This document shows positions 8,213-27,082 of a stretch of DNA of 32,000 nucleotides, in pieces. The position numbers and the translations under genes are program-made. Source of the DNA: Phycisphaera mikurensis NBRC 102666 (GTDB taxonomy: Bacteria; Planctomycetota; Phycisphaerae; Phycisphaerales; Phycisphaeraceae); NCBI RefSeq assembly GCF_000284115.1, contig NC_017080.1, positions 1,770,001-1,802,000 of the forward strand, read 5' to 3'. The notes beneath the pieces were generated by a model. The model had not been told where the DNA came from and made no database searches. It worked only from the letters and a program-made list of their open reading frames with translations. Each line of letters begins with the position of its first letter. Positions within the stretch are counted from its first letter, which is position 1.

Positions 8213-9898
8213 ATGTCCAGCTACACCCTGCCCGAACTGCTCGAACCCGAGCCCGTCGCCGCGCAGACCGCGGTGCTCGTGGCCAGCGGCGACTCCCGCT
8301 CCTCCGCCAACGCGAGATGCTGGCCTGCGCAGCAGGAGCTCGAAGCCGACGCCGCCGAGGCACTCGCGGGCCTCGGCTGGAGCGTCCGACGCGGCCACGG
8401 CACGGTCGGATCCGCCCACGGCGAGCACGGATTCATCGACAGCCAGGCCCGCGGCCGCGACGTCTTCGCGAGCATCCACCCCGACGCCCCCGTCGTCGTC
8501 GCCGAGGCCGTTTGGCAGTACAGCAGCCACGTGCTCGCCGGGCTCTGCCAGCACCGCGGCCCCGTGCTCGTGCTTGCGAACTGGTCGGGCACCTGGCCCG
8601 GCCTCGTGGGCGCGTTGAACCTCCGCGGCTCGCTCACCAAGGCCGGGCGGCCGCACAGCTTCCTCTGGGGCGAGGACTTCGCGGCCGAGGGCTTCATGAG
8701 CAAGCTCAGGCAGTGGTGCGACACCGGCACCATCGAGCACGCCATGCCGCAGGTCCACGCCCGCGGCGGCCTGCCCGCCGCCGAGAGGGAGCTCGGGGAG
8801 GCGCTCGCCGCCGAGCTCCAGCACCGACCGGCCATCCTCGGCGTCTTCGACGAGGGCTGCATGGGCATGTTCAACGCCATCGTCCCGGATCACCTGCTGC
8901 ACCCCACCGGCGTCTTCAAGGAGCGGCTCAGCCAGAGCGCGCTGTACGCCGCGATGCGAGAGGTCTCCGACGCCGAGGCGCAGGCCGTCCGCGGCTGGTA
9001 CGACCAGGCGGGCATCACCTTCGAGACCGGCGACGATCCAGAGACCGACCTCACCGAGGACCAGATCCTCGACCAGTGCCGCATGTACGTCGCGGCCGTG
9101 CGGATCGCCGACGCCTTCGGGTGCGACGCCATCGGCATCCAGTACCAGCAGGGCCTCAAGGACCTCGCGCCGGCGAGCGACCTCGTCGAGGGCACGCTCA
9201 ACTGCAGCGTCCGCCCGCCGGTGGAGCGGGCCGACGGCTCGGTGATCCGCGGGGGCGAGGCGATCACCCACTTCAACGAAGCCGACGAGTGCGCCGGGCT
9301 CGACGGCCTCGTCACCCACCGCGTCTGGACCGCGATGGGCATGAGCCCCGACAACACCCTGCACGACCTGCGCTGGGGCGATGAAGACCGCAGCGGCACC
9401 ACCGACGCGTACGTCTGGGTGTTCGAGATCTCCGGCTCGGTGCCGCCCACGCACTTCGCCCACGGCTGGCAAGGCGCCACCAGCAAGCGCCAGCCCCCGA
9501 TGTACTTCCGCCTCGGCGGCGGCTCGATCCAGGGCGTGAGCAAGGCCGGCCCCTGCGTCTGGTCGCGCATCTACGTGGCCGACGACCGGCTCCACATGGA
9601 CCTGGGCCGCTGCCGGGCGATCGACCTGCCCGCCGAGGAGACGCAGCGCCGCCTCGACGCCACCACCCCGCAGTGGCCGATCATGCACGCCGTCACGCAC
9701 GGCGTGTCCCGCGACGAGATGATGGCCAAGCACCAGGCCAACCACATCCAGCTCGTCTACGCCGATAGCGACGAGCGGGCCGACCGCGCCCTCGCCGCCA
9801 AGGCCGCGATGGCCGCCGCGATGGGCATCCGCGTCAACCTCTGCGGCGAAGCCGCCGACGGGATGAGGCTCGCCGACAAGCTCGCGTCGCTGACCTGA
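8213..9898 (+). CDS. L-fucose isomerase-family sugar isomerase (substrate unknown)
   Basis: 561 aa. The C-terminal third aligns by eye with E. coli FucI: [25 protein letters not shown] versus [25 protein letters not shown]; [10 protein letters not shown] versus STWPTTWFAP; [12 protein letters not shown] versus WGANHGVLTIGH. The size is comparable to FucI (591 aa). Confidence 0.7.
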
Positions 9899-10107
9899 GC
9901 GCCGAGCCGCGGCTTGCGCGCAGGCCGGTCGCACAGCGGCGTTTCAGGCGCTTGGCGGACGGCCTGCGCCCGTCGCTCTGCCTGCGGGCCGCCGGCGGCC
10001 ACGGTACGGACCGGGGGCTTCCGGGCGCGTCCGTTGATCGCGGTCCGCGGATTTCTGGCACGATGCGGGGTTTCCGAAGCGCTCCTCTTGATCCACGTCC
10101 ACGCCCC

Positions 10108-11580
10108 ATGACCCGCCACCTCCTCGCCGTCGACCTGGGCGCCTCCTCCGGCCGCGTCATGTGCTGCACGCTCACCGGGGAAGGCTCGGCCGGCACGCTC
10201 CGCCTCGACGAGGCCCACCGCTTCGCCAACCGCACCGTCTTCGTGCCCGACGACGGGCCGCGGGGCGGCCGCTTCACGTGGGACATCGTCGGCCTCTACG
10301 CCGACGTCCTCCACGGATTGCGCGAGGGCGGCCGGCGCTTCGGGGGCGCGGTCGACGCGATCGGCATCGACAGCTGGGGGGTGGATTACGGCCTGCTCGA
10401 CGCGCAGGGCCGGCTGATCGCCAACCCCACCGCGTACCGCGACCCGCGTCACCCGCCGGTGGCGGAGCGGGTGAACGAGGCGATCGGCTGGCCGGCCCTT
10501 TACGAGCGGACCGGCATCCAGAAGCTGCCGTTCAACACGCTGTACCAGCTGGCCGCCGACGCGGAGGACCCCTCCGAGCCGCTGGAGCGCGCCGCTTCCG
10601 CGCTGATGATCCCCCAGCTGCTGGGCTACTGGCTCGCCGGCGAGAAGAGGAGCGAGCACACGCTGGCGAGCACCGGCGGGTGCTACGACACCGAGTCGGC
10701 CGCGTGGTGTGGGGAACTCCTCACGCCGCGGGGCGTGCCCGAGAACCTGTTGCCGCCCGCCGTGCAGCCGACCGATCGCATCGGCACGCTGCGGCCCGGC
10801 GTCGCCGAAGACCTCGGGCTGCCCGCCGGCACGCCGCTGATCGCGGTGGGCAGCCATGACACCGCCTCCGCTGTGGCGGGGGCGCCGCTGTCGGGCCCGG
10901 GCAGCGCGTACCTCTCCAGCGGGACGTGGTCGCTGCTGGGCGTCGAGCTCGACGAGCCGATCCGCACGGCCGCGGCGCGCGACGCCGGGTTCACCAACGA
11001 AGGCGGCGTGAGCGGGACGATCCGGTTCCTGAAGAACCACGCCGGGCTCTGGCTCGTCCAGGAGTGTCGCCGAGCTTGGAATGAGGGGGGGAACGACTAC
11101 GGCTTCCCCGAGCTGGCGCACCTGGCCGAAGCGGCGGGGCCCTCGCGCTGCTCGATCGACGCCGACGACCCGCGTTTCGCCGTGCCCGGCGACATGCCCG
11201 CCCGCGTGCGGGAGGCCGCGGCCGAGCGCGGCGCGCCGCTCCCCGACGAACCCGGCGCCGTCATGCGCTGCGTGCTCGAGTCGCTCGCCGCCGCCTACGC
11301 GGGCAGCGTCCGGACGCTCGGCGAGCTGACCGGCCGCCCGGTCGACCGCCTCCACCTCGTCGGCGGCGGCGGCAACCACCGGCTGCTCAACCGCCTCACC
11401 GCCGACGCCTGCGGCGTGCCCGTGGAGGTCGGGCCCACCGAGGCCACGGTCGTCGGCAACGCGCTGGTGCAGGCGATGGCGCTGGGCCGCGTCGCCGACC
11501 TCGCCGAGGCCCGGGCGATCGTGCGGGCCTCGTTCCCGATCGAGACGGTGGAGCCGTCGCCGGGGCGGGCCACGGATTGA
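10108..11580 (+). CDS. rhaB: Rhamnulokinase (FGGY family)
   Basis: ATG at 10108. AVDLGASSGRVM, GIDSWGVDYGLLD, YRDPR, LPFNTLYQL, GSHDTASAV, YLSSGTWSLLGVE, TNEGG, LKNHAGLWL and HLVGGG all match E. coli RhaB closely. The upstream part of the track ORF (from 9952) is not coding. Confidence 0.9.
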   Translation: MTRHLLAVDLGASSGRVMCCTLTGEGSAGTLRLDEAHRFANRTVFVPDDGPRGGRFTWDIVGLYADVLHGLREGGRRFGGAVDAIGIDSWGVDYGLLDAQGRLIANPTAYRDPRHPPVAERVNEAIGWPALYERTGIQKLPFNTLYQLAADAEDPSEPLERAASALMIPQLLGYWLAGEKRSEHTLASTGGCYDTESAAWCGELLTPRGVPENLLPPAVQPTDRIGTLRPGVAEDLGLPAGTPLIAVGSHDTASAVAGAPLSGPGSAYLSSGTWSLLGVELDEPIRTAAARDAGFTNEGGVSGTIRFLKNHAGLWLVQECRRAWNEGGNDYGFPELAHLAEAAGPSRCSIDADDPRFAVPGDMPARVREAAAERGAPLPDEPGAVMRCVLESLAAAYAGSVRTLGELTGRPVDRLHLVGGGGNHRLLNRLTADACGVPVEVGPTEATVVGNALVQAMALGRVADLAEARAIVRASFPIETVEPSPGRATD

Positions 11581-15577: not shown

Positions 15578-15623
15578 CCGCGGACCGCTGCGTTTGGTGG
15601 GGATCCTGCCCGCCGGTCCGCGG
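15578..15623. repeat. 46-nt palindromic element, copy D
   Basis: CCGCGGACCG (15578-15587) / CGGTCCGCGG (15614-15623) with a 26-nt loop containing GGGGATCC. It starts 19 nt after the metG stop. Confidence 0.85.
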
Positions 15624-15668
15624 GACCGGGCTTCAGCACGCCGCGGGACGTGCCGATGTCGCTCGTGC

Positions 15669-17795
15669 ATGCATGCCCCGCACCCCTCCCGCACGGCGCG
15701 TCTCCTCGATCCGGCCGCCGAACCCGCCGCCGCCTCGTTCCGGGTCGACGACGGCTTCCTGCGGAGGATGCGCGCGTCGTGCGTCGACCGGTCCGTGCGG
15801 CGTCTGACGCTGTCGTACACGGTCGGGCTGCTGCTCATCGCGGCGCTGACGGTGGGCGCGTACCTGCGGGTGGAGGGGGCGCTGCGGCAGCAGCGCAGCG
15901 ACGCGGCGGTCATCAACGTGGCGGGCAAGCAGCGGATGCTCAGCCAGCGCATCACCAAAGCGGCGATGGCCATGGCGGGCGGCGCTTCCGTGGGCGAGGG
16001 CGGGGCCGGCTTCGGCTCGGAGCTGCGCGAGGCGATTGCGGCCTTCGAGCTCGGCCACACGGCGCTGACGGTCGGCAACGACGCCGTGGGCGTGCCGCCG
16101 ACGGTGGATGCGGAAGCGGTGTCGCGGATCCGGCGGCTGGGCCCGTCCTTCGAAGCCCTGGTCGCGGCCGCCGAAGCCATCGCCGACGGGGCCGACCCGA
16201 AGGTCCACCTGCCGGTCCTCCTCGCCGAGCAGGCGCAGTTCCTGCCCGAGCAGGACGCGTTGGTCTCGCGGTTCGCCACGCTCTCGCGGGCGAAGGTCGC
16301 CCGGCTCGAGGCGGACCACGCCTGGCTGCTCTGGATCACGCTGGGCCTGCTGCTCGCGGAGGCGGTGCTGGTGTTCGCGCCGGCCGCCCGCGCCATGCGG
16401 CGCCAGCTGCAGATCCTGCACGAAGCCGGGGAGATCATGAGCCACGAGGCGAAGCACGACGCCCTCACCGGGCTGGCGAACCGCAACGCGCTGCTGCAGC
16501 ACCTCGAGGTGCTGCTGCACGCGGCCCACGGCGACGCGCAGGAGGAAGTCGCGGTGTACTTCCTCGACTTCGACCGCTTCAAGGCGATCAACGACAGCCT
16601 CGGCCACGAGGCCGGCGACCGGCTCCTCAAGGAGATCGCCAGCCGGGCGCGGGTGCTGATGGACGATCCCCGCGTGGGCCGGCTCGAGGCCTTCCGCCTC
16701 GGCGGGGACGAGTTCGTGCTCGTGCTGCACGGCCGCTCGATCGGCCACGAGATCCGTCCGCTGGCCGACCGCGCCCTGGTGCTGTTCGGCCAGCCCTGCG
16801 TGCTCGATGGGCACCCCTGCGTGTCCACGGCGAGCATCGGCATCGCGACCGCGTCGGGCCCACGCCCCGGCGACGCGTCGCGGACGCGGACGGCCTCGGA
16901 GCTGCTGCGCAACGCCGACCTGGCCATGATGCAGGCCAAGGCGGCGGGCAAGGCGCGGTACATGGTCTTCGACGAAACGATGTACCGCTACGCCCAGCGG
17001 CGGCAGCGGCTGGAGCACGATCTGCGGGAAGCGGTCGACACCGACCGGCTCGGCGTCCGCTACCTGCCGATCGTCTCCGCCGACCACTCCGGTCTCGTCG
17101 CCGTGGAGGCGATCGCCCGCTGGGACCACCCGCAGCTGGGGCTGCTGGAGGACGCGGAGCTGCTGGAGGTCGCGACCGACGCGGGGCTGGTGCACGAGCT
17201 GAGCGATCGGGTGCTCAGGCGGGTGAGCGTGGAGGTCGCCGCGGCCGCGGCGGCGCCGAACGCGGCACCGCTCCCGTGGATCCACCTCAACGTCTCGCGC
17301 GCCGAGGCTTCGCACCCGGCCTTCCCGGACCGCCTCGCCGCGGCGCTTGTGGACTGCCCTCCGCTGGCCGGGCGTCTCTGCCTCGAGTTCGCCGAGGACA
17401 ACCTCGGCCGCGGCCTCGATCACTTTTCGGGCCTCGTCCAGCGGGTGTCCGCGTTGGGCGTGAAGACCTGCATCGACGATCTCGGCGGGGCCCACGCCTC
17501 GCTGGGCGACCTCGCCCGCCTCGGCGTGGACCAGATCAAGATCCAGCCGGGCGTCAACTCGCCCGACCGGCTGGTCGATCCGCTGTCCCTTCTCGTGCCC
17601 CGCGCCGTCGTGGCCTTCGCCCGCGGGGTCGGCGTCGAGGTCACGGCCACCGGCGTCGACTGCGAGCCCGCGGTGGCGGTGGCGTTGGACCTGGGCGTCG
17701 AGGCGCTGCAGGGCCTGCACTTCGGCGGCCCGGGCTCGCTCGAGGAGGTCCTGCGCCGGGCGGCCGGGAGCGGCGGCATCCGGTTGGCGGCCTGA
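15669..17795 (+). CDS. Membrane sensor with PilJ/NarX-type periplasmic domain, a GGDEF diguanylate cyclase domain and a degenerate EAL domain
   Basis: NVAGKQRMLSQRITK (P-box-like PilJ/NarX N-terminal sensor motif) lies between two TM segments. RLGGDEFVLVL is an intact GGDEF motif. The EAL-like domain has YLPIV..VEAIARW, NVS, LEFAE, DDLGGAHASL, IKIQ, ATGVD and LQGL. The start is uncertain (ATG 15669 or 15768). Confidence 0.85.
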   Translation: MHAPHPSRTARLLDPAAEPAAASFRVDDGFLRRMRASCVDRSVRRLTLSYTVGLLLIAALTVGAYLRVEGALRQQRSDAAVINVAGKQRMLSQRITKAAMAMAGGASVGEGGAGFGSELREAIAAFELGHTALTVGNDAVGVPPTVDAEAVSRIRRLGPSFEALVAAAEAIADGADPKVHLPVLLAEQAQFLPEQDALVSRFATLSRAKVARLEADHAWLLWITLGLLLAEAVLVFAPAARAMRRQLQILHEAGEIMSHEAKHDALTGLANRNALLQHLEVLLHAAHGDAQEEVAVYFLDFDRFKAINDSLGHEAGDRLLKEIASRARVLMDDPRVGRLEAFRLGGDEFVLVLHGRSIGHEIRPLADRALVLFGQPCVLDGHPCVSTASIGIATASGPRPGDASRTRTASELLRNADLAMMQAKAAGKARYMVFDETMYRYAQRRQRLEHDLREAVDTDRLGVRYLPIVSADHSGLVAVEAIARWDHPQLGLLEDAELLEVATDAGLVHELSDRVLRRVSVEVAAAAAAPNAAPLPWIHLNVSRAEASHPAFPDRLAAALVDCPPLAGRLCLEFAEDNLGRGLDHFSGLVQRVSALGVKTCIDDLGGAHASLGDLARLGVDQIKIQPGVNSPDRLVDPLSLLVPRAVVAFARGVGVEVTATGVDCEPAVAVALDLGVEALQGLHFGGPGSLEEVLRRAAGSGGIRLAA

Positions 17796-17901
17796 GGGGG
17801 CCGCCGCGGCTTCGGCGTCGCCGCGCCCGCGTACCGTCGGGCGGCGTCCGGCGGCGTGGTTCTCGCGCGTCCGGCCTTCTCCTTCTCCCGAGCGCCCGCC
17901 G

Positions 17902-19353
17902 ATGCCCAAGCTCCTCGCCGCCGCCGCCGCCGCCGCGACGCTCCTCCCGGCGGTGGCGGTCGCGGCGGCTCCGGCCGGCGGCGGGCCGGGACCGATCTTC
18001 CGCATCGAAGCCGAGGACGCGCAGCTCACGGGCGTGCGAGCGGTCCGCGGGGCGGGCGACCCGTCCGACCACGCCGGCGACGGCTACGTCACCGGCTTCG
18101 TCGGCGACGACGCCCGCGTCCGCTTCGCCTTCCCGGCGGAGGCGGGGCTGCACGAGCTGCGGGTGGGCCACCGCTCGCCGCTGGGCGAGAAGGCGTACTT
18201 CCTGCGCGTCAACGGGTTGCAGATCGAGGAGCGCTTCGCGCGGACCGGCGACGGCTTCGAGGTGGACCGCACCGGCCGCGTGGAGCTGCGGGACGGCGTG
18301 AACGAGCTGGCGATCGCCCGCGGCTGGGGCCACTACGACCTCGACTTCATCGAGGTCTGGCCCGCCGACCCGCTCCCGGTGCCGACGGTCGCGGACCCGA
18401 CGCCCTCCAACCCGCGGGCCACGCCGGCCGCGCGGGCGCTGCTCCGCCGGCTCGCCTCGGTCTACGGCCGGGCGACGCTCTCGGGGGTGAACGCGCCCGC
18501 CGACGCCGACCACGTCGAGCGGGTGGCGGGCGTGCGGCCGGCGATGCGGTGGGCCGATCTCATGGACTTCTCGCCGAGCCGGATCGCCCGCGGCGCCGAC
18601 CCCGGCGACCTCGTCGAAGAGCAGCTCGCCGCCGCCGCCGAAGGCGCGGCCATCGGCCTGTCCTGGCACTGGAACGCGCCCTCGGGGTTGCTCGACGACC
18701 CCGCCTTCGTCGACGCCGAGGGGCAGGCGAAGGACGCCGCCTGGTACAAGGGCTTCTACACCTACGCCACCGCTTTCGACGTGGAGGCGGCGATGAACGA
18801 CCCGGCTTCGGCCGCGTACGCCGAGCTCGTGAGCGACATCGACGCGATCGCCCAGCCGCTGCGACGCTTCGCCGAGGCCGGCGTGCCGGTGCTGTGGCGG
18901 CCGCTCCACGAGGCCAACGGCGGCTGGTTCTGGTGGGCGGCGAAGGGGCCGACGCCCTACGGCAAGCTCTGGCGGCTGATGCACGACCGGCTCGTGAACG
19001 TCCACGGCCTGCACAACCTGCTGTGGGTCTACACCGGCGGACCGATCGCCTACCCCGGGGACGCCTACTGCGACCTGGTCGGCTGGGATGCCTACTACGC
19101 GGACCCGCGCGACCCGCTGACCGGAGACTGGCAGACGATGCTCGCGGCCTTCGACGGCCGCCGGATGATCGCCCTGACCGAGTTCGGCAAGGTGCCGGAC
19201 GTGCCGCGCATGCAGCGGCTGGGCGTGTGGTGGTCGTTCTTCGCTTCCTGGACCGGCGAGGACGGCCCGCGGGCGATGCCCGACGAGGAGCTCCGCCGCG
19301 TCTTCCACGCGCCCGGCGTGATGAACCTCCAGGCTTGGCGAGGCGTCCGCTGA
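17902..19353 (+). CDS. Secreted beta-mannanase, GH26 catalytic domain with an N-terminal CBM (CBM6/35-like)
   Basis: Signal peptide (AAAAAATLLPAVAVAAAP). A CBM-like module (FRIEAEDAQLTG..GYVTGF..LDFIEVW) is followed by the GH26 motif WRPLHEANGGWFWW and the nucleophile region IALTEFG. Confidence 0.85.
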   Translation: MPKLLAAAAAAATLLPAVAVAAAPAGGGPGPIFRIEAEDAQLTGVRAVRGAGDPSDHAGDGYVTGFVGDDARVRFAFPAEAGLHELRVGHRSPLGEKAYFLRVNGLQIEERFARTGDGFEVDRTGRVELRDGVNELAIARGWGHYDLDFIEVWPADPLPVPTVADPTPSNPRATPAARALLRRLASVYGRATLSGVNAPADADHVERVAGVRPAMRWADLMDFSPSRIARGADPGDLVEEQLAAAAEGAAIGLSWHWNAPSGLLDDPAFVDAEGQAKDAAWYKGFYTYATAFDVEAAMNDPASAAYAELVSDIDAIAQPLRRFAEAGVPVLWRPLHEANGGWFWWAAKGPTPYGKLWRLMHDRLVNVHGLHNLLWVYTGGPIAYPGDAYCDLVGWDAYYADPRDPLTGDWQTMLAAFDGRRMIALTEFGKVPDVPRMQRLGVWWSFFASWTGEDGPRAMPDEELRRVFHAPGVMNLQAWRGVR

Positions 19354-19488: not shown

Positions 19489-20298
19489 TCACTTGCCCGC
19501 GAAGAACTTCTTCACGGCGTGGACGGTCAGCTGCCGGCCGGCCTTGCCGATCGCTTCGGTGAGCGGGATCTCCTTGGGACAGACCTTCACGCAGTTCTGA
19601 GCGTTGCCGCAGTCGCCGACGCCGCCGGGGCCGGCGAGGGCCTCGAGCCGCTCGGGCTTGAGCTTCTTGCCGGTCTCGTGCTGGTTGAAGTAGTACGCCT
19701 GGGCGATCGCCTGCGCCCCGAGGAAGGCGTTGTCCGCGGTGAACTGCGGGCAGGCCTCCAGGCAGCAGCCGCAGGTCATGCAGCGGGAGATGGCGTAACG
19801 CTCCTGCTGCTGCTCCGGGGTCTCCTGCGGCCCCTCCCCGAGGTCGTGCGTGCCGTCGATGGGCACCCAGGCCTTCACGCGGATGAGGTTGTCGAACATC
19901 CGCTGGCGGTCGACGAAGAGGTCGCGCACCACCGGGAACTTGGTCATGGGCTCCAGGGAGATCAACCGTTCGTCCGCGTCCTCGAGCAGGTCGGGCACGA
20001 GGGCGGAGCAGCTCTGCCGCACGCGGCCGTTGACGATCATCGTGCACGAGCCGCACACCTCCTCGAGGCAGCCGGACTCCCAGACGACCGGCTCGACGCT
20101 CTCGCCCTCGACGGTCGTGGGGTGGGCGGCGACGTACTGCAGCACCGAGATGACGTTCTGCGCGGGCCGCTCGGGCACCTCGAAGGTGTTCCAGTAGCTG
20201 GGCTGATCGGCGCCATCCTGCCTCTTGATGCGCACGCGGAAGGTCTTCGCGGCGGGGGAGGCGGCGTCGGAGGCTTTCGAGTCGGCGGGGGCGATCAT
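19489..20298 (-). CDS. sdhB: Succinate dehydrogenase/fumarate reductase iron-sulfur subunit
   Basis: 269 aa with three Cys clusters: CLEEVCGSCTM ([2Fe-2S]), CMTCGCCLEACP ([4Fe-4S]) and CGNAQNCVKVCP ([3Fe-4S]). Confidence 0.9.
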   Translation of the reverse strand: MIAPADSKASDAASPAAKTFRVRIKRQDGADQPSYWNTFEVPERPAQNVISVLQYVAAHPTTVEGESVEPVVWESGCLEEVCGSCTMIVNGRVRQSCSALVPDLLEDADERLISLEPMTKFPVVRDLFVDRQRMFDNLIRVKAWVPIDGTHDLGEGPQETPEQQQERYAISRCMTCGCCLEACPQFTADNAFLGAQAIAQAYYFNQHETGKKLKPERLEALAGPGGVGDCGNAQNCVKVCPKEIPLTEAIGKAGRQLTVHAVKKFFAGK

Positions 20299-20480
20299 GG
20301 CGGGTGTGGGAGCGGGACCGGTGCGGCGGAACTTTAGGGACGCGATCGGCCGGCGCGGCGGGCGGTGGGCACGCCGACCGCGTCTGCATCGGGGGTTTCG
20401 TCGGTGCCCCGACCCGCCTACGCTTGGGCGACGCCCGGCACCCGCAGGGCGTGGCTCGACGCTTCCTCTGGAGACGGCTC

Positions 20481-20894
20481 ATGCGATCGCCCCTTCCCCG
20501 CGTTCCCGCCGCCGGATCGCTGTGCTGCGTCGCGGCGCTCGCGCTGGGCGTCGGCTGCAGCTCGACCGCCTACGAGCGGGAGCAGCAGCGGCTCACGAGC
20601 CTGCAGCAGTCGCTCGCGGCCGCCGCCGAGCGGCTCAACGCCGCGGATCTCCCGGGGGCCGAGGCGCACCTCGACGAGGCCGGCGGCCTCGCCGAGAGCG
20701 ATTACGAGCGGCGGAAGGTGGCGAGCCTGAGGGGCGTCGTGGAGGGGGCGGACCGCCTCGCCGAGGGCGACGGGCCCGGGGCCGCCGCCGCCTGGTCGAG
20801 GATCCAGAGCCCGACCCTCCGCTACGAGGTGCAGGAAAAGGCGGCGGGCGTGGGCATCCAGGTGCCCGACCGCCCGGTGCCCGCTGCGGAGTGA
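20481..20894 (+). CDS. Putative lipoprotein, helical (hypothetical)
   Basis: ATG at 20481 is preceded by GGAGACGG. The signal sequence has a lipobox-like ALALGVGC|SS. The rest is Ala/Glu/Leu-rich and helical. No family recognised. Confidence 0.5.
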   Translation: MRSPLPRVPAAGSLCCVAALALGVGCSSTAYEREQQRLTSLQQSLAAAAERLNAADLPGAEAHLDEAGGLAESDYERRKVASLRGVVEGADRLAEGDGPGAAAAWSRIQSPTLRYEVQEKAAGVGIQVPDRPVPAAE

Positions 20895-20929
20895 TCCGGC
20901 CGCTTCTTCTCTCGCCCACGAGGTCCCCC

Positions 20930-22003
20930 ATGAACGCTTCTCCCTCCGGTTTCTGCTTCCGCGGCACGGCCCTCGCGGCCCTGCTCGCCGCCTCCGCCGC
21001 CTCGGCACAGGACAGCGTCTTCACCGAGCTGCCCGCGGAGCCGGCGGCGACGCCCTCGGCCGAATCCAGCGAGCGGGCGGGCCGGCCCGTCCTCGACGGC
21101 TACGACTTCGGCCAGGTGGTCGACACGATGGAGGCGTCGGTCACGCCGCTGCAAGAGGAGATGGACCGCAGCTTCGCGGTGCTGATCGAGCGGATGGGCG
21201 ATGCCGAGCGCCTGCTCGAGGAGGGCCGCACGCTCGAGGCGATGGAGGAAGCCTCGGCCGCGATCGACGGCGTGCTCGCCGTCCGCGACAGGGTCCTCGA
21301 GCCGATGTGGGACGGGCAGCAGGCGTTGCAGGAGCAGACCGGCGCCGCCCGGCTGCGGCTGGCCAAGGCGATGGCGGCGGTGGAGGCCGAGAAGCGTCCG
21401 GGCACCAGCGAGGCCGAGCAGCAGACCGAGGGCGTGCTGGACTCGATCGCGGCGCGGATCGCCAACGAGACCGACCCGAACCGCAAGAAGCGGCTGATGG
21501 CGCACTACCGCACGGTGCGGAACCTCGCCAGCGTGAAGAGCCTGACCGACCAGCTCTCCCCCGATCAGCGGAAGCTGTGGGTGAACGTGCTCTCGGTGCT
21601 GGACGACGCCGGGCTCGCCCACCAGCAGGTGCTCATGGGCAGCGAGGTGCTGTTCTCGCAGTTCGAGGCGACCTCGGCGAACCTCCGCGAGTTCATGCGG
21701 CTGCACCGCACCGTCGACGGGGCCAGCGAGCTCATCGAGATGGTCCGCGGCATGCAGCAGGACGGGTCGGGCTTCGCCGGCTTCGTCACGAACATGAGCG
21801 AGCTGCAGGACCGGCTCGCGGGCTTCAACACCTCGATGGAGGGCGCGCTGCAGGGGCAGATGGCCATCCTCGAGGGCCGCGTCGACGAGCTCGGCGGCCT
21901 GGAGGGCGACGTCCTCGGCGACGACGGCGTGATGATGTCCGCCGACGCCGACGCCGAGATGCAGAACCGCATCCGCCGGCTGCAGCAGGCCGACGACGAG
22001 TGA
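20930..22003 (+). CDS. Secreted all-helical/coiled-coil protein (hypothetical)
   Basis: The in-frame ATG at 20930 gives MNASPSGFCFRGTALAALLAASAASA|QDS, a signal peptide. The remaining 357 aa are Glu/Leu/Ala/Arg/Met-rich with long heptad-like helices. No family recognised. Confidence 0.6.
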   Translation: MNASPSGFCFRGTALAALLAASAASAQDSVFTELPAEPAATPSAESSERAGRPVLDGYDFGQVVDTMEASVTPLQEEMDRSFAVLIERMGDAERLLEEGRTLEAMEEASAAIDGVLAVRDRVLEPMWDGQQALQEQTGAARLRLAKAMAAVEAEKRPGTSEAEQQTEGVLDSIAARIANETDPNRKKRLMAHYRTVRNLASVKSLTDQLSPDQRKLWVNVLSVLDDAGLAHQQVLMGSEVLFSQFEATSANLREFMRLHRTVDGASELIEMVRGMQQDGSGFAGFVTNMSELQDRLAGFNTSMEGALQGQMAILEGRVDELGGLEGDVLGDDGVMMSADADAEMQNRIRRLQQADDE

Positions 22004-22023
22004 TCTTCCCCCACCCCCACCCC

Positions 22024-22512
22024 ATGATGAAGCGCACCTCCACCCTCCTCGCTCTCGCGGCGCTGCTGCTGGCGGCGCCTGCGCTGCTGCCCGCCGGCGT
22101 GCCCGGCGCCGCGGCGTTCGCCTCCGCACAGGAGATCACCCCCGAGGTGCGGGCCGACTTCGCCCGCCTCACCCGCGAGCGGAGCCAGGCCCACGCCCAG
22201 CTCCGCAAGCTCGACCGGCAGGCCGCGGACCGCGTCCGCGACGGCCGCGACGCGACCGAGGTGTACGCCGAGCAGATCAACACGCAGGACAAGCTGGACC
22301 TGATCCAGCTGCGCCTCGAGCTGCTCGCCACCCGCTACGGCCTCCCGCTGCAGCCGGTGGAGGCCCCGGAGGCCTCCGACGGCCGCGACCCTGTGGAGAA
22401 AGCGACCGACCGCGTGTTCTCGCGCGGCGAGGCACGGGCCCGGGATCAGCTCCGACGTGACGTGGAAGACTTCCTGCGGTCGATCGACTTCAGCGACTTC
22501 CTGGCGGAGTGA
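22024..22512 (+). CDS. Small secreted helical protein (hypothetical)
   Basis: ATG at 22024 gives MMKRTSTLLALAALLLAAPALLPAGVPGAAAFASA|QE, a signal peptide, followed by a charged helical region. 162 aa, starting 20 nt after the previous gene. Confidence 0.6.
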   Translation: MMKRTSTLLALAALLLAAPALLPAGVPGAAAFASAQEITPEVRADFARLTRERSQAHAQLRKLDRQAADRVRDGRDATEVYAEQINTQDKLDLIQLRLELLATRYGLPLQPVEAPEASDGRDPVEKATDRVFSRGEARARDQLRRDVEDFLRSIDFSDFLAE

Positions 22513-22536
22513 GGACGCATCGGCTCCGCCGATCGA

Positions 22537-22616
22537 GCGAAGAAGCGGGGAAGCGAAGAAGCGAAGAAGCGAAGAAGCGAAGAAGCGAGGAAGTCAAGAA
22601 GCGGGGAAGCGAAGGA
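22537..22616. repeat. Octanucleotide tandem array (GCGAAGAA-like) x10
   Basis: Units read gcgaagaa gcggggaa gcgaagaa gcgaagaa gcgaagaa gcgaagaa gcgaggaa gtcaagaa gcggggaa gcgaagga. The array starts 25 nt after the stop at 22510-22512. Confidence 0.9.
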
Positions 22617-22714
22617 GTCAGCAGAGTTGGAGTTCGGCACGTTTGCTCTTCAGGAGCCACCTCGGGGTCACTGCTCGCCCGGTCCCCCGCAGGTCCCAAG
22701 CCTCACTGTCTGAC

Positions 22715-22738
22715 TTCCCCGCTTCTCCGCTTCTTCGC
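22715..22738. repeat. Three inverted copies of the same octamer (ttccccgc ttctccgc ttcttcgc)
   Basis: The reverse complement is gcgaagaa gcggagaa gcggggaa. It can pair with the 3' units of the 22537-22616 array, with additional pairing GTCAGCAGAG/CACTGTCTGAC, giving a foldback of about 150 nt. It ends 24 nt before the exbB-like ATG. Confidence 0.85.
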
Positions 22739-22761
22739 CCGCCTCTCTCCCTCCTGCCGCC

Positions 22762-23181
22762 ATGCTGATGCGTTTCATGGAACTCGGCGGGCCGCTGATG
22801 TGGCCGCTGCTCGCGTGCTCCGTCCTGCTGGGCGCGGTGCTCTTCGAGCGGCTCTGGACGGTGGGCGTCCTCCACCTGATGCTCGGCGCGGCGGGCGGCG
22901 TCGGCCCCGCTGCGCTGGCCTGGCACCGGCGGGCGCTGCCGTTCTTCGTGGACGTGCCGCCGAGCATCGGGCTGCTCGGGACCGTCGTGGGCGTCATCCG
23001 CAGCTTCAACCTCGGCGGCGGCGGGATCGACACCGACGCGGTGGCCTCCGGGCTCGGGGTGGCCTGCATCACCACGGTCTTCGGGCTTTCGATCGCGATC
23101 GTCGCGTCGATCGCGCAGCACCTGCTGGACTGGATCACCGGGCAGCCGGAGCCGGGGCAGCCCGCAGAGGCGGGGGGCTGA
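22762..23181 (+). CDS. MotA/TolQ/ExbB-family proton channel protein, unusually short
   Basis: 139 aa with three hydrophobic helices. GLLGTVVGVIRSF and GLGVACITTVFGLSIAIVASI match the conserved TM2/TM3 region of ExbB/TolQ. The TM1-TM2 loop is only about 35 aa. Confidence 0.75.
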   Translation: MLMRFMELGGPLMWPLLACSVLLGAVLFERLWTVGVLHLMLGAAGGVGPAALAWHRRALPFFVDVPPSIGLLGTVVGVIRSFNLGGGGIDTDAVASGLGVACITTVFGLSIAIVASIAQHLLDWITGQPEPGQPAEAGG

Positions 23182-23182
23182 G

Positions 23183-23572
23183 ATGGCGTACAAGAGCTTC
23201 ATCGACCTGCTGTTCATCCTGCTGCTGTCGACGTTCGTGCTGCTCTCCGAGTCGGTGCGGATGGAGACGGTCGACGCGAACCCCGCGGAGGTCTCCGGCG
23301 GCGCCCTGGCGCTGGACGAAGCGGAGCGGGCGGTGCAGGTGGCGGTGCTGCCCGGCGGCCGCGTCGCGGTCGCGGGGGAGGAGGTGGACGACGCCGCGGC
23401 GGCGGGGCGGGTGCCGGCGGGGGCCTGGGCGCTGCTGGTGCCGGGGCCGGAGGGGCTCGGGCACCAGCGGGTGATGGAGGTCTGGGCGACGCTGCGGGCG
23501 GCGGGCCTGGACGTGCGGCTGGGCGTGAAGCCCGGCCCCGGGCCCGGCTCTGCCGCGAAGGAAGGCGTGTAG
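23183..23572 (+). CDS. ExbD/TolR-like protein (divergent)
   Basis: 129 aa, starting 1 nt after the exbB-like stop. The N-terminal single TM segment carries an embedded Asp (SFIDLLFILLLSTFVLL), as in ExbD/TolR. The periplasmic domain is divergent. Confidence 0.6.
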   Translation: MAYKSFIDLLFILLLSTFVLLSESVRMETVDANPAEVSGGALALDEAERAVQVAVLPGGRVAVAGEEVDDAAAAGRVPAGAWALLVPGPEGLGHQRVMEVWATLRAAGLDVRLGVKPGPGPGSAAKEGV

Positions 23573-23573
23573 C

Positions 23574-24581
23574 GTGTCTCGTGCCGCGCTGGTCCTGGGC
23601 TTGCTCCTCTCCCTCGCGGTGCACGCGGCGGCGCTGTGGATCGGGCGGACGCCGCCGCCGGCGGCGGCGGAGGCACCGGTGACGGTGGCGCTGGTGGAGT
23701 TGCCGCCGGAGCCCGAACCCGAAGCCGGGGCCGAGCCCGGAATGCCGCCGGAGCCGGAGCCGCCTGCTGCGCCCGAGCCCGCTCCCGAGCCCGAGTCCCC
23801 ATCGGAGCCGGAGCCGGAGCCAGAGCCAGAGCCGGAGCCAGAGCGAGAGCCAGAGCCGGAGCCTGTTGCCGCCTCGCAGCCGGCTCCGGAAGCCGCGCCC
23901 GAGCCCGCTCCCGAGCCTGCGCCCGCGCCGGAGCCCGCGCCCGTGCCCCCGCCCGCACCCGCGGCGGAGCCCGCACCCGTTGCCCCGCCGCGGATCACCC
24001 CGGCGGACGCGCCACCGCCGCCACGCGACGCCCAACCCGAACCCGAGCCCAAGGCCGAGCCCGCACCCGAGGCGGCTCGGGAAGCCGCGCCCGCCGCGAA
24101 CGATTCGCTGCTCCGATCCGACGCTCCCACGACCGATCGCCCCGGCCCGGTCCTCGGCATCGACTGGGGCACGCCCGAGGATGCGATCGCCACCCTGCGG
24201 GCCAACCGCATGGTGGTCGCCATCTGGCGGGCCGACCGCTCCGGCGAGGGCGGCACCTACCAGGGCCGGGTCGAGTTCGTCAACGGCCGCTGGCGTCGCG
24301 AGCCGATCGATCCCGCGTCGCTCCCGCGCTTCGCGCGCACCCAGCGCCGGCTCGACGACGTCCCCGCCTTCAACGACGCCCGCCGCGCCGCCCGGCTGCG
24401 GCTGGGCGAGCGGCTGGTGGTGCTGATGCCGGTGGAGGTCGAGCGGAAGCTGCGGGCGAGCCTCGCCGCCGCGGCCGCCGACCGCGGCCTGGCCTATGAC
24501 GACGTGCGGGTGTTCGCCGGCCGCTTCCGCGTCCGCGGCGGCGCCGTCCGCTTCGAGATCGTCGAGGTCGTGCCCCATTGA
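23574..24581 (+). CDS. TonB/TolA-like energy-transducer anchor with a Glu-Pro/Ala-Pro spacer and an unrecognised C-terminal domain
   Basis: GTG start 1 nt after the previous stop. The N-terminal TM segment carries the SxxxH signature (LSLAVHAAAL; compare E. coli TonB LSVCIHGAVV). A spacer of about 130 aa is (EP)n/(AP)n-rich. The C-terminal 150 aa or so lack the YP...TonB_C pattern. Confidence 0.6.
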   Translation: MSRAALVLGLLLSLAVHAAALWIGRTPPPAAAEAPVTVALVELPPEPEPEAGAEPGMPPEPEPPAAPEPAPEPESPSEPEPEPEPEPEPEREPEPEPVAASQPAPEAAPEPAPEPAPAPEPAPVPPPAPAAEPAPVAPPRITPADAPPPPRDAQPEPEPKAEPAPEAAREAAPAANDSLLRSDAPTTDRPGPVLGIDWGTPEDAIATLRANRMVVAIWRADRSGEGGTYQGRVEFVNGRWRREPIDPASLPRFARTQRRLDDVPAFNDARRAARLRLGERLVVLMPVEVERKLRASLAAAAADRGLAYDDVRVFAGRFRVRGGAVRFEIVEVVPH

Positions 24582-24583
24582 AT

Positions 24584-24629
24584 CCGCGGACCGCGGGCCG
24601 GATCCGCCCGCCCCGGCGACGGTCCGCGG
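24584..24629. repeat. 46-nt palindromic element, copy B
   Basis: CCGCGGACCG (24584-24593) / CGGTCCGCGG (24620-24629) with a 26-nt loop containing GGGCCGGATCC. It starts 3 nt after the TonB-like stop. Confidence 0.85.
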
Positions 24630-24651
24630 CTCCCGCTCCTGAGATGGCCCC

Positions 24652-25569
24652 ATGAGAAAGCTCCGCCCCCTGCTCGCCTGCCTCGCGCTGCTGTCCACGG
24701 GCCCGGTGTCCGCGCAGCCGGCGCGGGCGACTCCCGCGCCCGCCGCGGACGCTCCCGCCTCCAGCCCCCTCGCCGCCGCCTACGCGGTGCTCACGGCCGG
24801 CCGGACGCGCGAGGCCGAGCTGGCCTTCCTCCGCCTGGCGGCCACCGCGGGCCCCGGCGACGCGGGCGCGCTGCTGGGCGCCGGCCTCGCCGCCGCGGCC
24901 GCGGGTGACGCCGGTCCCGCCGTCAAGCGGCTGCGGGCCGTGCTCCGGCTCGGGCCCGGCGGTGCCCTCCGTGGCCTCCCGCCCCGCGATGACCTCCTCG
25001 GCGTCGTGACGGCGGGCCGGACGAACCTCGAGAACGGCTTGATGGAGACCGACGACGTCGGCGGCGTGCTCGTCTCCTCGGCGCTCCTAGACTTCTTGGT
25101 CGGCGACCTGGAGACGGCACGGCTGAGCCTCGCCGCCGCCGTCCGCCGCGACGGGATGCAGCCGGAAATGCGGAGCCTGGACCGGCTCCTCCAGAACGCC
25201 CGCCTCGGCCTCCAAGCGGAGGGCGTGCAGCCGACGCCGCGCGTCACGCCGCCCGCGGCCCCGCGGGAGGTCGCTCGGGCGCCCGCGCCCGAGCTCGCCC
25301 TCGAGTCCGCACCCGAGTCCGCACCCGAGCCCGCACCCGGGCTGGCCTCCGAGCCGCCCGCCGCACCCCGCCTGCTCCGCCCGGTGAACCCCGGGGAGGA
25401 CGCCGAGCGTCCGCGGATCTTCTTCGACTACGAGAAGCTGAACCTGCGGGTCAGCGAGATGGCCGGCAGCCTGGAGAGCTTCGAGAAGAAGCTGATGCAG
25501 TCGCTGATGCGGGAGGCGCCCCCGCCCGCTCCCGACGCCGCCGCGTCGCCGGCGCCGGCGGCTCCATGA
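24652..25569 (+). CDS. Secreted Ala-rich, TPR-like helical protein (hypothetical)
   Basis: Signal peptide MRKLRPLLACLALLSTGPVSA|QP, followed by helix-turn-helix repeat-like Ala/Leu/Gly stretches, an AP/EP-rich linker and a conserved-looking C-terminal amphipathic helix (IFFDYEKLNLRVSEMAGSLESFEKKLMQSLM). Confidence 0.55.
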   Translation: MRKLRPLLACLALLSTGPVSAQPARATPAPAADAPASSPLAAAYAVLTAGRTREAELAFLRLAATAGPGDAGALLGAGLAAAAAGDAGPAVKRLRAVLRLGPGGALRGLPPRDDLLGVVTAGRTNLENGLMETDDVGGVLVSSALLDFLVGDLETARLSLAAAVRRDGMQPEMRSLDRLLQNARLGLQAEGVQPTPRVTPPAAPREVARAPAPELALESAPESAPEPAPGLASEPPAAPRLLRPVNPGEDAERPRIFFDYEKLNLRVSEMAGSLESFEKKLMQSLMREAPPPAPDAAASPAPAAP

Positions 25570-25621
25570 CCAAAACCGCCGCCGAGCGCCCGCCCGAGCG
25601 ATCCCGCTAGGGTGCCGATCC

Positions 25622-27082
25622 ATGAGCGCTCCCGACGATCCCATCGCCGCTTCCGAAGGCTCCACCCGCACCGAACGCGATTCCATGGGCGAGATGCAGG
25701 TGCCGGCGCAAGCCCTCTACGGCGCCTCCACCGCCCGCGCCGTCGCGAACTTCCCGATCGCCCACCGCCCGCTCGCCCCCGCAATCCTGCACGCCTTCGG
25801 CGAGCTCAAAGCGGCCTGCGCGGAGGTCAACCTCGAGGCCGGGCTGCTGGAAGAGGACCTCGCCCGGGCCATCGTCGCCGCCGCCGAGGAGGTCGCGCGG
25901 GGCGAGCACGACGGGCACTTCCCGGTGGACGTCTACCAGACCGGCTCGGGCACCTCGACGAATATGAACGCGAACGAGGTCATCGCCAACCTCGCGAACC
26001 AGAAGCTCGGCCTGCCGAGCTCGCCCGGCGGCGACCGCGACCCCAACGCCAAGCCCCGGGTCCACCCCAACGACCACGTCAACCTGGGGCAGAGCAGCAA
26101 CGACACCTTCCCCACGGCGATGCACATCGCCGTCTCGCGGCAGATCCACGACCGGCTCGTCCCCGCGCTCAAGAAGATGACCGACCGTCTCGCCGAGCAG
26201 GCGATGCGCTGGGACGGCATCACGAAGATCGGCCGCACCCACGTGATGGACGCGACGCCGATCCGCGTGGGCCAGGTGTTCTCCGGCTACGCCGAGCAAG
26301 GCGAGTGTGCCGCCCGCTTCGCCATGCTCGCGCTCAAGAGCACCAACGACGGCGTGCCCATTGGCGGCACCGCCGTGGGCACCGGCATCAACACGCTCCC
26401 CGGCTTCGGCGGGAAGGTCTGCCAGAAGCTCAGCGAGCGGACCGGTCTCCGCTTCCAGGAGGCGAACAACCACTTCTGCGCCCAGTCCTGCAAGGACGAG
26501 TTCGTCTACGCGCACGGCTGCCTGAAGACCGGCGCGATCGCGCTCTCGAAGATCGCCAGCGACATCCGCCTGCTCGGCAGCGGCCCCCGCGCCGGCCTCG
26601 CCGAGCTGAACCTGCCGGCGATCCAGCCGGGCAGCTCCATCATGCCCGGCAAGGTGAACCCGGTGCTCTGCGAGTCGGTCATCCAGGTCGCCTGCCGCGT
26701 GATCGGCAACGACGCCGCCATCGCGACGGCCAACCTCGGCGGCGTCGGCTCGCTCTTCGAGCTCAACGTCGCGATGCCGGTGATGGCCGACGCCTTCCTG
26801 GAGTCGATTGACCTGCTCACCAACGCGACGCTCGTGTTCACGGAGAAGCTGCTCGACGGGCTCGAGGTCAACGAGGACCGCTGCCGGGAGCTGCTTTCCC
26901 GCTCGCTGATGACGGTCACCGCCCTCGCTCCCGAGCTCGGCTACGACGTCTGCTCGGACCTCGCGAAGGAAGCACACCGGTCCGACCGCACCATCAAGGA
27001 GCTGGTGCTGGAGCGTGGGCTGATGGAGGAGTCGGCGCTCGACGAGGCGCTCGACGCGGAGAAGATGACCCGGCCGGGGTGA
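25622..27082 (+). CDS. fumC: Class II fumarate hydratase
   Basis: 486 aa with GSSIMPGKVNP (fumarate lyase signature), QTGSGTSTNMNANEVIAN and HPNDHVNLGQSSNDTFPTAMHIA. The SSND.FPTAMH pattern is FumC-like rather than aspartase-like. Confidence 0.88.
   Translation: MSAPDDPIAASEGSTRTERDSMGEMQVPAQALYGASTARAVANFPIAHRPLAPAILHAFGELKAACAEVNLEAGLLEEDLARAIVAAAEEVARGEHDGHFPVDVYQTGSGTSTNMNANEVIANLANQKLGLPSSPGGDRDPNAKPRVHPNDHVNLGQSSNDTFPTAMHIAVSRQIHDRLVPALKKMTDRLAEQAMRWDGITKIGRTHVMDATPIRVGQVFSGYAEQGECAARFAMLALKSTNDGVPIGGTAVGTGINTLPGFGGKVCQKLSERTGLRFQEANNHFCAQSCKDEFVYAHGCLKTGAIALSKIASDIRLLGSGPRAGLAELNLPAIQPGSSIMPGKVNPVLCESVIQVACRVIGNDAAIATANLGGVGSLFELNVAMPVMADAFLESIDLLTNATLVFTEKLLDGLEVNEDRCRELLSRSLMTVTALAPELGYDVCSDLAKEAHRSDRTIKELVLERGLMEESALDEALDAEKMTRPG

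Follow-up and report, generated by a model that had tools for sequence, protein, structure and literature searches.

The proteins TonB and TolA have long been the sole known routes by which the proton-motive force of the inner membrane reaches the outer envelope, and an output through a von Willebrand factor type A (vWA) domain was proposed only in 2025. The proteins concerned are periplasmic force transducers of the PVC (Planctomycetes, Verrucomicrobia, Chlamydiae) bacteria and others, which combine a TonB/TolA-like anchor with a C-terminal domain different from that of TonB (Williams-Jones et al. 2025, PMC12204202). Among the longer-known systems, CpoB of the Tol-Pal system has been proposed to be ancestrally a lipoprotein, and a proline-rich spacer is typical of non-proteobacterial TolA, while the accessory proteins of the Vibrio TonB2 system are essential (PMC6957404). 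Here, we describe a cluster of seven co-directional genes, g1 to g7, located on the forward strand at positions 20481-25569 of a 32,000-nucleotide stretch from Phycisphaera mikurensis NBRC 102666 (contig NC_017080.1, positions 1,770,001 to 1,802,000), hereafter referred to as the window. It is likely that this cluster works by a mechanism of the same general kind, in which a motor acts through a new kind of transducer on co-encoded partners. The fuller reading that we favour, if only tentatively, is that of a self-contained, lineage-specific system of the Ton/Tol type in the Phycisphaerales that transmits force across the envelope and has a role in its maintenance. A description of the cluster, or of Tol or Ton systems in Phycisphaerae, was not found in the literature.

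Since long spurious open reading frames are common at the ~74% G+C of the window, for which 61 overlapping frames were listed, the codon-position composition of the seven frames was tested. The GC content of g1 to g7 is 0.88-0.98 at the third and 0.44-0.60 at the second codon position, similar to that of the flanking fumarase and folD genes, and this strong third-position GC indicates that all seven are coding. Accordingly, the frames that a sequence-only reading of the window had placed at these coordinates are genes by position and composition alike. In public databases, g1, g2, g3, g6 and g7 are named hypothetical or uncharacterised; g2 is listed as a hypothetical protein of P. mikurensis, and the g4 protein has an exact counterpart on contig JACHEL010000004.1 of assembly GCA_014207395.1. 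Loci of relatives, numbered with the prefix L below, were collected by a scan with a g2 profile in one genome per species, which yielded 41 loci, all apparently from Phycisphaerales.

The probable motor genes and the putative transducer

The gene g4 (22762..23181, forward strand) encodes a minimal proton-channel subunit of the MotA/TolQ/ExbB type with 139 amino acids and three transmembrane (TM) segments. It matches Pfam MotA_ExbB (PF01618) at E 9.8e-13 and 48.4 bits, well above the cutoff of 22.9, in agreement with its public annotation. Among the NCBIfam models, exbB2 and tolQ fit best and about equally well, and all equivalogs (exbB, exbB2 and tolQ) remain far below their cutoffs. Judged by these profiles, g4 is a member of the MotA_ExbB family that is not assignable to either the ExbB or the TolQ subfamily. 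The motifs PP-x-x-GLLGT-x-x-G in TM2 and TT-x-x-G in TM3, which comprise P67, G70-T74 and T104/T105 of g4, are conserved to at least 94% across 36 homologues, T74 being present in 100% and T104/T105 in 94-97% of the sequences. We take T74 and the threonine of TM3 to be the counterparts of T148 and T181 of ExbB. The loop between TM1 and TM2 comprises only ~30 residues in g4 and likewise in most homologues, so that the large cytoplasmic domain found at this position in E. coli ExbB and TolQ is not present in g4, which therefore represents a minimal form.

The following gene, g5 (23183..23572, forward strand), begins 1 nt downstream of g4 and encodes a protein of 129 amino acids. Its single N-terminal TM helix carries the motif SF(V/I)DLLFILL, in which the aspartate D8 is invariant among 34 sequences. 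Pfam ExbD matches g5 over its full length, but with E 1.2e-3 and 19.4 bits the match stays below the cutoff of 25.4; within the family, 23 of the 34 members match at E <= 0.1, the best of them at 1e-6, and the family profile extends, at E ~0.1, to the ExbD chains of known structure 7ajq_F and 6tyi_Y. By these sequence criteria, g5 appears to be a divergent ExbD/TolR-type subunit. A natural replacement is observed in the clade formed by L032 and L039, the only loci in which the TM1-TM2 loop has the canonical length. Here, an ExbB (~240 amino acids) and an ExbD, both of canonical length, occupy the position of the minimal g4 and g5 (L039 11494-12808; L032 11754-12479) in an otherwise equivalent cluster, and the C-terminal domain of g6 belongs to the same family as elsewhere. 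Thus, the g4/g5 slot appears to be that of a true ExbBD-type motor.

The putative transducer g6 (23574-24581) begins with a GTG codon 1 nt downstream of g5. According to the alignment of its homologues, the N-terminal part (23574..24149, forward strand) is composed of a TonB/TolA-like anchor, a strand resembling the motor box, and a spacer rich in proline and glutamate. The N-terminus, MSRAALVLGLLLSLAVHAAAL, contains the signature S13-x3-H17, of which the histidine is found in 27 of 27 intact homologues and a serine four positions before it in 22 of the 27. The anchor helix is followed by the alternating hydrophobic strand PVTVALVEL, in the position of the 'motor box' described for TonB and TolA (PMC12204202), and then by the spacer, with a combined proline and glutamate fraction of 0.61 in g6 and a length of ~30-290 amino acids in the family. 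The RefSeq model of g6 (WP_184700419.1, 212 amino acids) starts at 23943 and, by omitting 23574-23942, leaves out the anchor together with half of the spacer. The start at 23574 is supported by the 27 homologues, all of which begin with MS(R/K)...GL..S...H directly after their g5.

The C-terminal domain of g6 (24150..24581, forward strand; RIDWG ... YSNRLRVVD.VPAF ... ERLAVLVP) was delimited by the family alignment and is predicted by AlphaFold2 to be an alpha/beta domain of ~145 amino acids. None of 31 family members gives a significant Pfam match in this region, be it to TonB_C, TolA domain III or vWA, and a search of the PDB with the domain profile returned neither a significant match nor any TonB chain at E <= 10. 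While a homologue search with the single sequence found two proteins, a search with an alignment built from the loci yielded 17, which was enough for a confident model; on a 16-sequence alignment, the predicted local distance difference test (pLDDT) was 87.6 and the predicted template modelling score (pTM) 0.80. A Foldseek comparison of this model with 350,542 PDB chains gave a best E of 0.15 and template modelling (TM) scores of at most 0.19, with no TonB fold and no vWA among the matches. Going by sequence and model, the domain is folded, is neither TonB_C nor TolA domain III, and is new. As it shares an element of the form LxVLVP plus helix with the periplasmic domain of ExbD, an origin by duplication of the latter was considered, but the two proved to be unrelated (hhalign probability 0.7%). 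In L036-L038, the C-terminal domain of the g6 homologues is strongly diverged.

Taken together, these findings bear out what had been read from the sequence of the three genes, namely an ExbB-type channel, now found to score above the gathering threshold of MotA_ExbB, an ExbD-like protein with a membrane-embedded aspartate, although its own Pfam match is below cutoff, and a TonB-like protein with an SxxxH membrane signature, an EP/AP spacer and a non-canonical C-terminus.

Conservation of the cluster and its periplasmic proteins

The genes had been interpreted as one envelope cluster, and they are indeed conserved as neighbours: by tblastn, g1-g2-g3-g4-g5-g6 are colinear on one strand in ~40 Phycisphaerales genomes. 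In a strict chain test all six genes were recovered in 23 of 39 loci, most of the others being cut by contig ends. The same order is kept in the vicinity of very distant relatives of g2 on metagenomic contigs (profile E 1e-8 to 1e-18), of which L045 and L046 maintain it through MotA_ExbB and the small gene that follows, and L044 and L047 still show a TPR protein followed by g2 and g3 up to the point where the contig or its annotation ends. The neighbours of the cluster in P. mikurensis, sdhB, fumC and folD, are not conserved beside it. The contigs of L026, L031, L033, L039 and L043 are labelled Singulisphaera, proteobacterium, Isosphaeraceae or Bifidobacterium, probably owing to errors in the binning or labelling of metagenome-assembled genomes.

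In P. mikurensis, the gaps from g1 to g7 measure 35, 20, 249, 1, 1 and 70 nt. The median gaps at the junctions from g1 to g6 in the relatives are 10, 8.5, 12, -4 and -1 nt, and overlaps of 4 and 1 nt are typical. The long gap between g3 and g4 (22513..22761, no strand assigned), which had been noted as rich in repeats, contains ~10 tandem copies of GCGAAGAA at 22536-22620 and an inverted partial copy at 22711-22738, just upstream of the start of g4; none would be expected by chance. Array and inverted copy can pair into a long stem (-116.6 kcal/mol, z -2.18). As the median distance in relatives is so short, the 249 nt represent a species-specific insertion and not an operon boundary. The insertion is a recent one, and it may affect the translation or transcription of g4 to g6.

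This gap would be an argument for the view that the genes do not form one system at all, but an ordinary exbB-exbD-tonB operon beside unrelated genes or, given a weak match of g4 to ZorA (E 0.0045), a Zorya-like anti-phage module. However, the gap is confined to this species, its counterpart in the relatives often being an overlap, and the gene order is held across deep divergence. The match to ZorA covers 50 residues of the generic MotA core, and PADLOC yielded no match to any other defence family. Synteny largely refutes this view, and we give it next to no credence.

Upstream of the motor genes reside three predicted periplasmic proteins. The first, g1 (20481..20894, forward strand; third-position GC 0.93), is a small protein of 137 amino acids with a TPR-like helical body. 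Its signal peptide ends in a cysteine that is invariant in 40 homologues, on which ground g1 is regarded as a lipoprotein, as had been supposed. HemY_N is weakly matched by 8 of 34 family members, and the counterparts of g1 in the distant versions of the cluster match TPR_2/TPR_16. In 36 loci, g1 lies immediately upstream of g2, often with a 4-nt overlap. The third, g3 (22024..22512, forward strand; third-position GC 0.93), is found downstream of g2 in 38 loci and encodes a secreted coiled-coil protein of 162 amino acids with a conserved C-terminal SIDFxxFL helix, for which no significant match was found in Pfam or the PDB.

Between them lies g2 (20930..22003, forward strand), a secreted, all-helical protein of 357 amino acids and, with 40-60% identity across the order, the best conserved accessory component; the motifs LSPDQRKLW and LAHQQVLMGSE are among those recognised in the alignment of its homologues. 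Such homologues are confined to Phycisphaerae/Planctomycetota and carry the annotation hypothetical throughout, and only 76 clusters were recovered when 1.84 billion representatives were searched with a profile. Among 60 members no significant Pfam family was detected, and there was no significant sequence match in the PDB. The 60 homologues matched 67 Pfam families at E <= 1, and DUF3450 does not appear among the 25 of these that were listed. The AlphaFold2 model of g2 consists of long helices (pLDDT 77), for which Foldseek found no significant fold match in the PDB and only generic similarities to helical bundles. Two more specific identities were rejected. Some JGI names of g2 homologues read cytochrome b562-like, and 23 of the 60 homologues show a weak match of this kind, but all of these are below threshold (best E 0.0054) and cover one helix pair with a common EGK..EA pattern, which does not support a haem protein. 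Likewise, the similarity to ClyA/NheA-like toxins (Foldseek TM <= 0.30, E >= 0.08) is of the generic kind seen with long helical bundles. The proteins that the sequence-only reading had left without a family have thus not turned out to belong to well-characterised, unrelated ones, as g1, g2, g3 and the C-terminus of g6 remain without a Pfam, NCBIfam or PDB match, both as single proteins and with 31-60 family members.

The last gene, g7 (24652..25569, forward strand; third-position GC 0.93), is separated from g6 by a GC-rich hairpin with perfect 10-nt arms (24584..24629, forward strand), seen by repeat and fold analysis. The 46-nt palindromic element that had been reported at this position is therefore real as a hairpin, but its folding energy (-38.1 kcal/mol, z -1.69) is not exceptional. 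The hairpin, which may be a terminator or an attenuator, has no T-tract and was not called by the terminator scan; promoter, terminator and Rfam scans of 20000-26000 gave nothing usable. The product of g7 has 305 amino acids, with a TPR-like N-terminal domain, a proline-rich linker and a C-terminal helix. Its description as a secreted TPR-like protein holds as far as secretion is concerned, while the TPR assignment is weak (TPR_16, E 0.0086) and conservation over the full length is restricted to the closest subclade, where, in eight related loci, the gene that comes after g6/g6b can be aligned with g7 at 22-31% identity. By tblastn, no neighbouring homologues of g7 had been found, which the full-length alignment and a motif hidden Markov model (HMM) showed to be a matter of sensitivity.

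The gene g6b is an extra gene that starts at or overlaps the stop of g6 in most relatives and is absent in P. mikurensis (examples include L003 13304-13927, L004 13097-13690, L008 12412-12894, L011 13464-14216, L016 13556-14341 and L041 8180-9100). Its product consists of a TM helix, a disordered acidic or proline-rich stretch and a C-terminal amphipathic helix, [VI]DYxxLxxx[LM]xxxxxxLxxFxxKL. In the closest subclade, the TPR-like gene following g6b ends in a C-terminal helix of the same type, and so does g7, in which the motif reads FDYEKLNLRVSEMAGSLESFEKKLMQSL (25423..25512, forward strand); P. mikurensis carries the motif only on this TPR version. When the motif HMM was run against all stop-to-stop frames of the window and of ~700 kb of loci, it matched only open reading frames directly downstream of g6, including some in loci outside its training set (L007, L014, L017-L021). 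The heptad-like spacing of its hydrophobic residues makes it probable that the helix takes part in a coiled coil, and we regard it, from its sequence, as a candidate docking helix. In a Mucisphaera genome (L042 9420-11967), g1 to g3 are followed by a motif-bearing protein, with no ExbB-, ExbD- or TonB-like genes within 10 kb, so that the protein with the motif is associated with the periplasmic module.

It might be asked whether the motor serves surface motility, adhesion or secretion, in the manner of the Agl-Glt gliding machinery or of the vWA transducers of PVC bacteria. Motors of the TolQR type power gliding in Myxococcus, and a gliding-related role has been proposed for non-TonB transducers of PVC bacteria whose genes have TPR genes as neighbours (PMC12204202). 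In contrast, no vWA domain, secretin, pilus, adhesin or large outer-membrane component was found in the cluster or its conserved flanks, and the accessory proteins are all small and helical, making this possibility a very unlikely one.

In the wider surroundings of the cluster, the regions 7000-8187 (reverse strand), 8213-11580 (forward strand) and 15594-19353 (forward strand) contain genes for a GH130 protein, an isomerase-like protein, an FGGY kinase, a PilJ-GGDEF-EAL protein and a CBM35-GH26 protein, suggestive of the use of mannan or other polysaccharides and of cyclic di-GMP signalling.

Other genes adjoin the cluster in part of the relatives. In at least 14 loci (L014-L035; e.g. L020 8099-9397), a gene for an S8 subtilase (Peptidase_S8, E 1.9e-20) with a lipobox, which P. 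mikurensis lacks, precedes g1 by ~100 nt on the same strand. A second S8 gene lies ~9 kb downstream in L018 and L021, followed in L021 by a second g1-like open reading frame. Within the same range of loci, a gene resembling those of extracytoplasmic function (ECF) sigma factors lies ~0.3-1 kb downstream of g6 together with two genes for membrane proteins, one placed as an anti-sigma factor would be and one of 420 amino acids, in 8-14 loci (regions downstream of g6 include L015 9340-10173, L026 15305-15847 and L027 5399-6661).

These neighbours raise the question of signalling or regulated proteolysis, in which the transducer would sense or pull a periplasmic complex and thereby control the ECF sigma factor, the lipoprotein subtilase, or both. 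TonB-dependent cell-surface signalling through anti-sigma factors is established for FecA-FecR-FecI, and, besides the subtilase directly upstream, the sigma-like gene (Sigma70_ECF, E 6.8e-4) and the membrane protein in anti-sigma position are found together downstream of the cluster in 13-14 loci. However, sigma factor and protease are missing next to the cluster in P. mikurensis and in the relatives closest to it and are hence not core parts, the Sigma70_ECF match falls just below the Pfam cutoff, and there is no barrel with a signalling domain. We therefore consider a signalling function to be distinctly unlikely, if less so than one in motility.

A possible role in the outer envelope

In the reading that we favour, a self-contained Ton/Tol-type system, g4 and g5 would form a 5:2 motor in the inner membrane that is driven by the proton-motive force. 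The anchor of g6 would dock on this motor via the helix containing H17, and g6 would transmit mechanical work through the periplasm to the new domain at its C-terminus. This domain would act on g1, g2, g3 and g7/g6b rather than on a TonB-dependent barrel, and the coiled-coil helix shared by g7 and g6b probably docks onto the helical module of g2 and g3. The role of such a system might be similar to that of Tol-Pal, that is, maintaining, tethering or remodelling the outer envelope, with nutrient import being less likely. We prefer a Tol-Pal-like role because no barrel gene is linked to the cluster in any of ~40 loci and no TonB-box-binding domain is present, and because Planctomycetes have been reported to lack Pal (PMC12204202 supplement) and of 13 planctomycete genomes only 4 were found to encode TonB and its receptors (PMC3422733). 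As had been stated before, the window contains no TonB-dependent receptor, TolB or Pal.

Several points weigh against the reading just outlined. The clade of L036-L038 has a glutamine in place of the anchor histidine (VVSAGLQSLV; L036 12656-13618), which is unexpected if the histidine is essential. Moreover, the proposed role in envelope maintenance derives from the absence of a nearby barrel and from analogy. Finally, tonB genes are often unlinked to receptors (PMC12204202), so that a receptor encoded at a distance might be served by the cluster.

The last point leads to Ton-type import as an alternative, in which motor and g6 would energise an outer-membrane transporter encoded elsewhere, be it a TonB-dependent barrel or an equivalent peculiar to planctomycetes, and g1-g3 and g7 would be accessory proteins similar to TtpB and TtpD of the Vibrio TonB2 system. 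Such a function would suit a window that is rich in polysaccharide-utilisation genes (GH26/CBM35, GH130, sugar kinases), and a model of short ExbB proteins, exbB2, is the best NCBIfam match of g4. In known systems, however, the TonB box is recognised by TonB_C, through strand addition, and the C-terminal domain of g6 is not a TonB_C. In addition, there is no homologue of TtpC, DUF3450 does not appear among the Pfam families listed for g2, and both the lack of a linked barrel gene and the rarity of TonB-dependent receptors in planctomycetes speak against import. Overall, we consider import unlikely, yet clearly more plausible than signalling.

Within the favoured framework of a Tol-Pal-like system, it might further be speculated that the cluster is a functional replacement of Tol-Pal in the Phycisphaerales, the new transducer domain of a proton-driven system acting on a new module of lipoprotein and coiled-coil proteins (g1-g3 and g7/g6b). 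When the cells divide by binary fission, the outer membrane would thereby be tethered or constricted, in bacteria that are reported to lack Pal and whose phylum is not known to possess FtsZ. This specific proposal is unlikely, with about the same standing as import. If it is true, the conserved coiled-coil helix would constitute a new motor-coupling motif with a role analogous to that of the TonB box or the TolA box.

Comparison with known force-transducing systems

Planctomycetes possess both peptidoglycan and an outer membrane, yet Pal has not been reported from them and their TonB systems are few, and the cluster therefore bears on how their envelope is stabilised and divided. It provides a further output domain together with its probable partners in one compact operon, which makes the load of the motor directly accessible to experiment. 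The elements shared with the canonical ExbB-ExbD-TonB system are the channel residues, the membrane aspartate, the S-x3-H anchor and the Pro/Glu spacer. In contrast to that system, the cytoplasmic domain of g4 is almost absent, TonB_C is replaced, and four to five further conserved genes are present.

With regard to gene order, the cluster matches the Vibrio TonB2 operon (ttpB-ttpC-exbB2-exbD2-tonB2-ttpD2), as in both cases a periplasmic protein is followed by a short ExbB, an ExbD, a TonB-like protein and a TPR protein at the end. The fact that exbB2 is the best NCBIfam model for g4 fits this similarity, even though the score is far below cutoff. The resemblance to TonB2/Ttp that the sequence-only reading had pointed out thus holds for the gene order. 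It does not extend to the components, since neither TtpC nor another second MotA-like gene was found, DUF3450/TtpB is not among the listed matches of g2, and g6 has no TonB_C; nor is the cluster known to be connected with iron regulation or with receptors. Tol-Pal with CpoB (tolQ-tolR-tolA-tolB-pal-cpoB) is likewise a self-contained operon in which motor and transducer are combined with periplasmic and lipoprotein partners, including a TPR/coiled-coil protein. However, a TolB beta-propeller, a Pal/OmpA-like peptidoglycan-binding domain and TolA domain III are found neither in the seven proteins nor in the rest of the window, the accessory genes are located upstream of the motor genes, and the ExbB-like subunit is minimal.

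The architecture of the vWA transducers (PMC12204202) is similarly tripartite, and their genes reside beside tolQ/tolR-like motor genes and a TPR gene. Anchor and spacer of g6 correspond to this arrangement, but its C-terminus is an alpha/beta domain of ~145 residues that is no vWA by either Pfam or fold. A single ExbD-like gene is present here in place of a heterologous pair, and the cluster adds three conserved periplasmic proteins, g1 to g3, and a shared coiled-coil motif. Thus, while the class of mechanism is familiar, the output domain, the set of partners and the motif are new.

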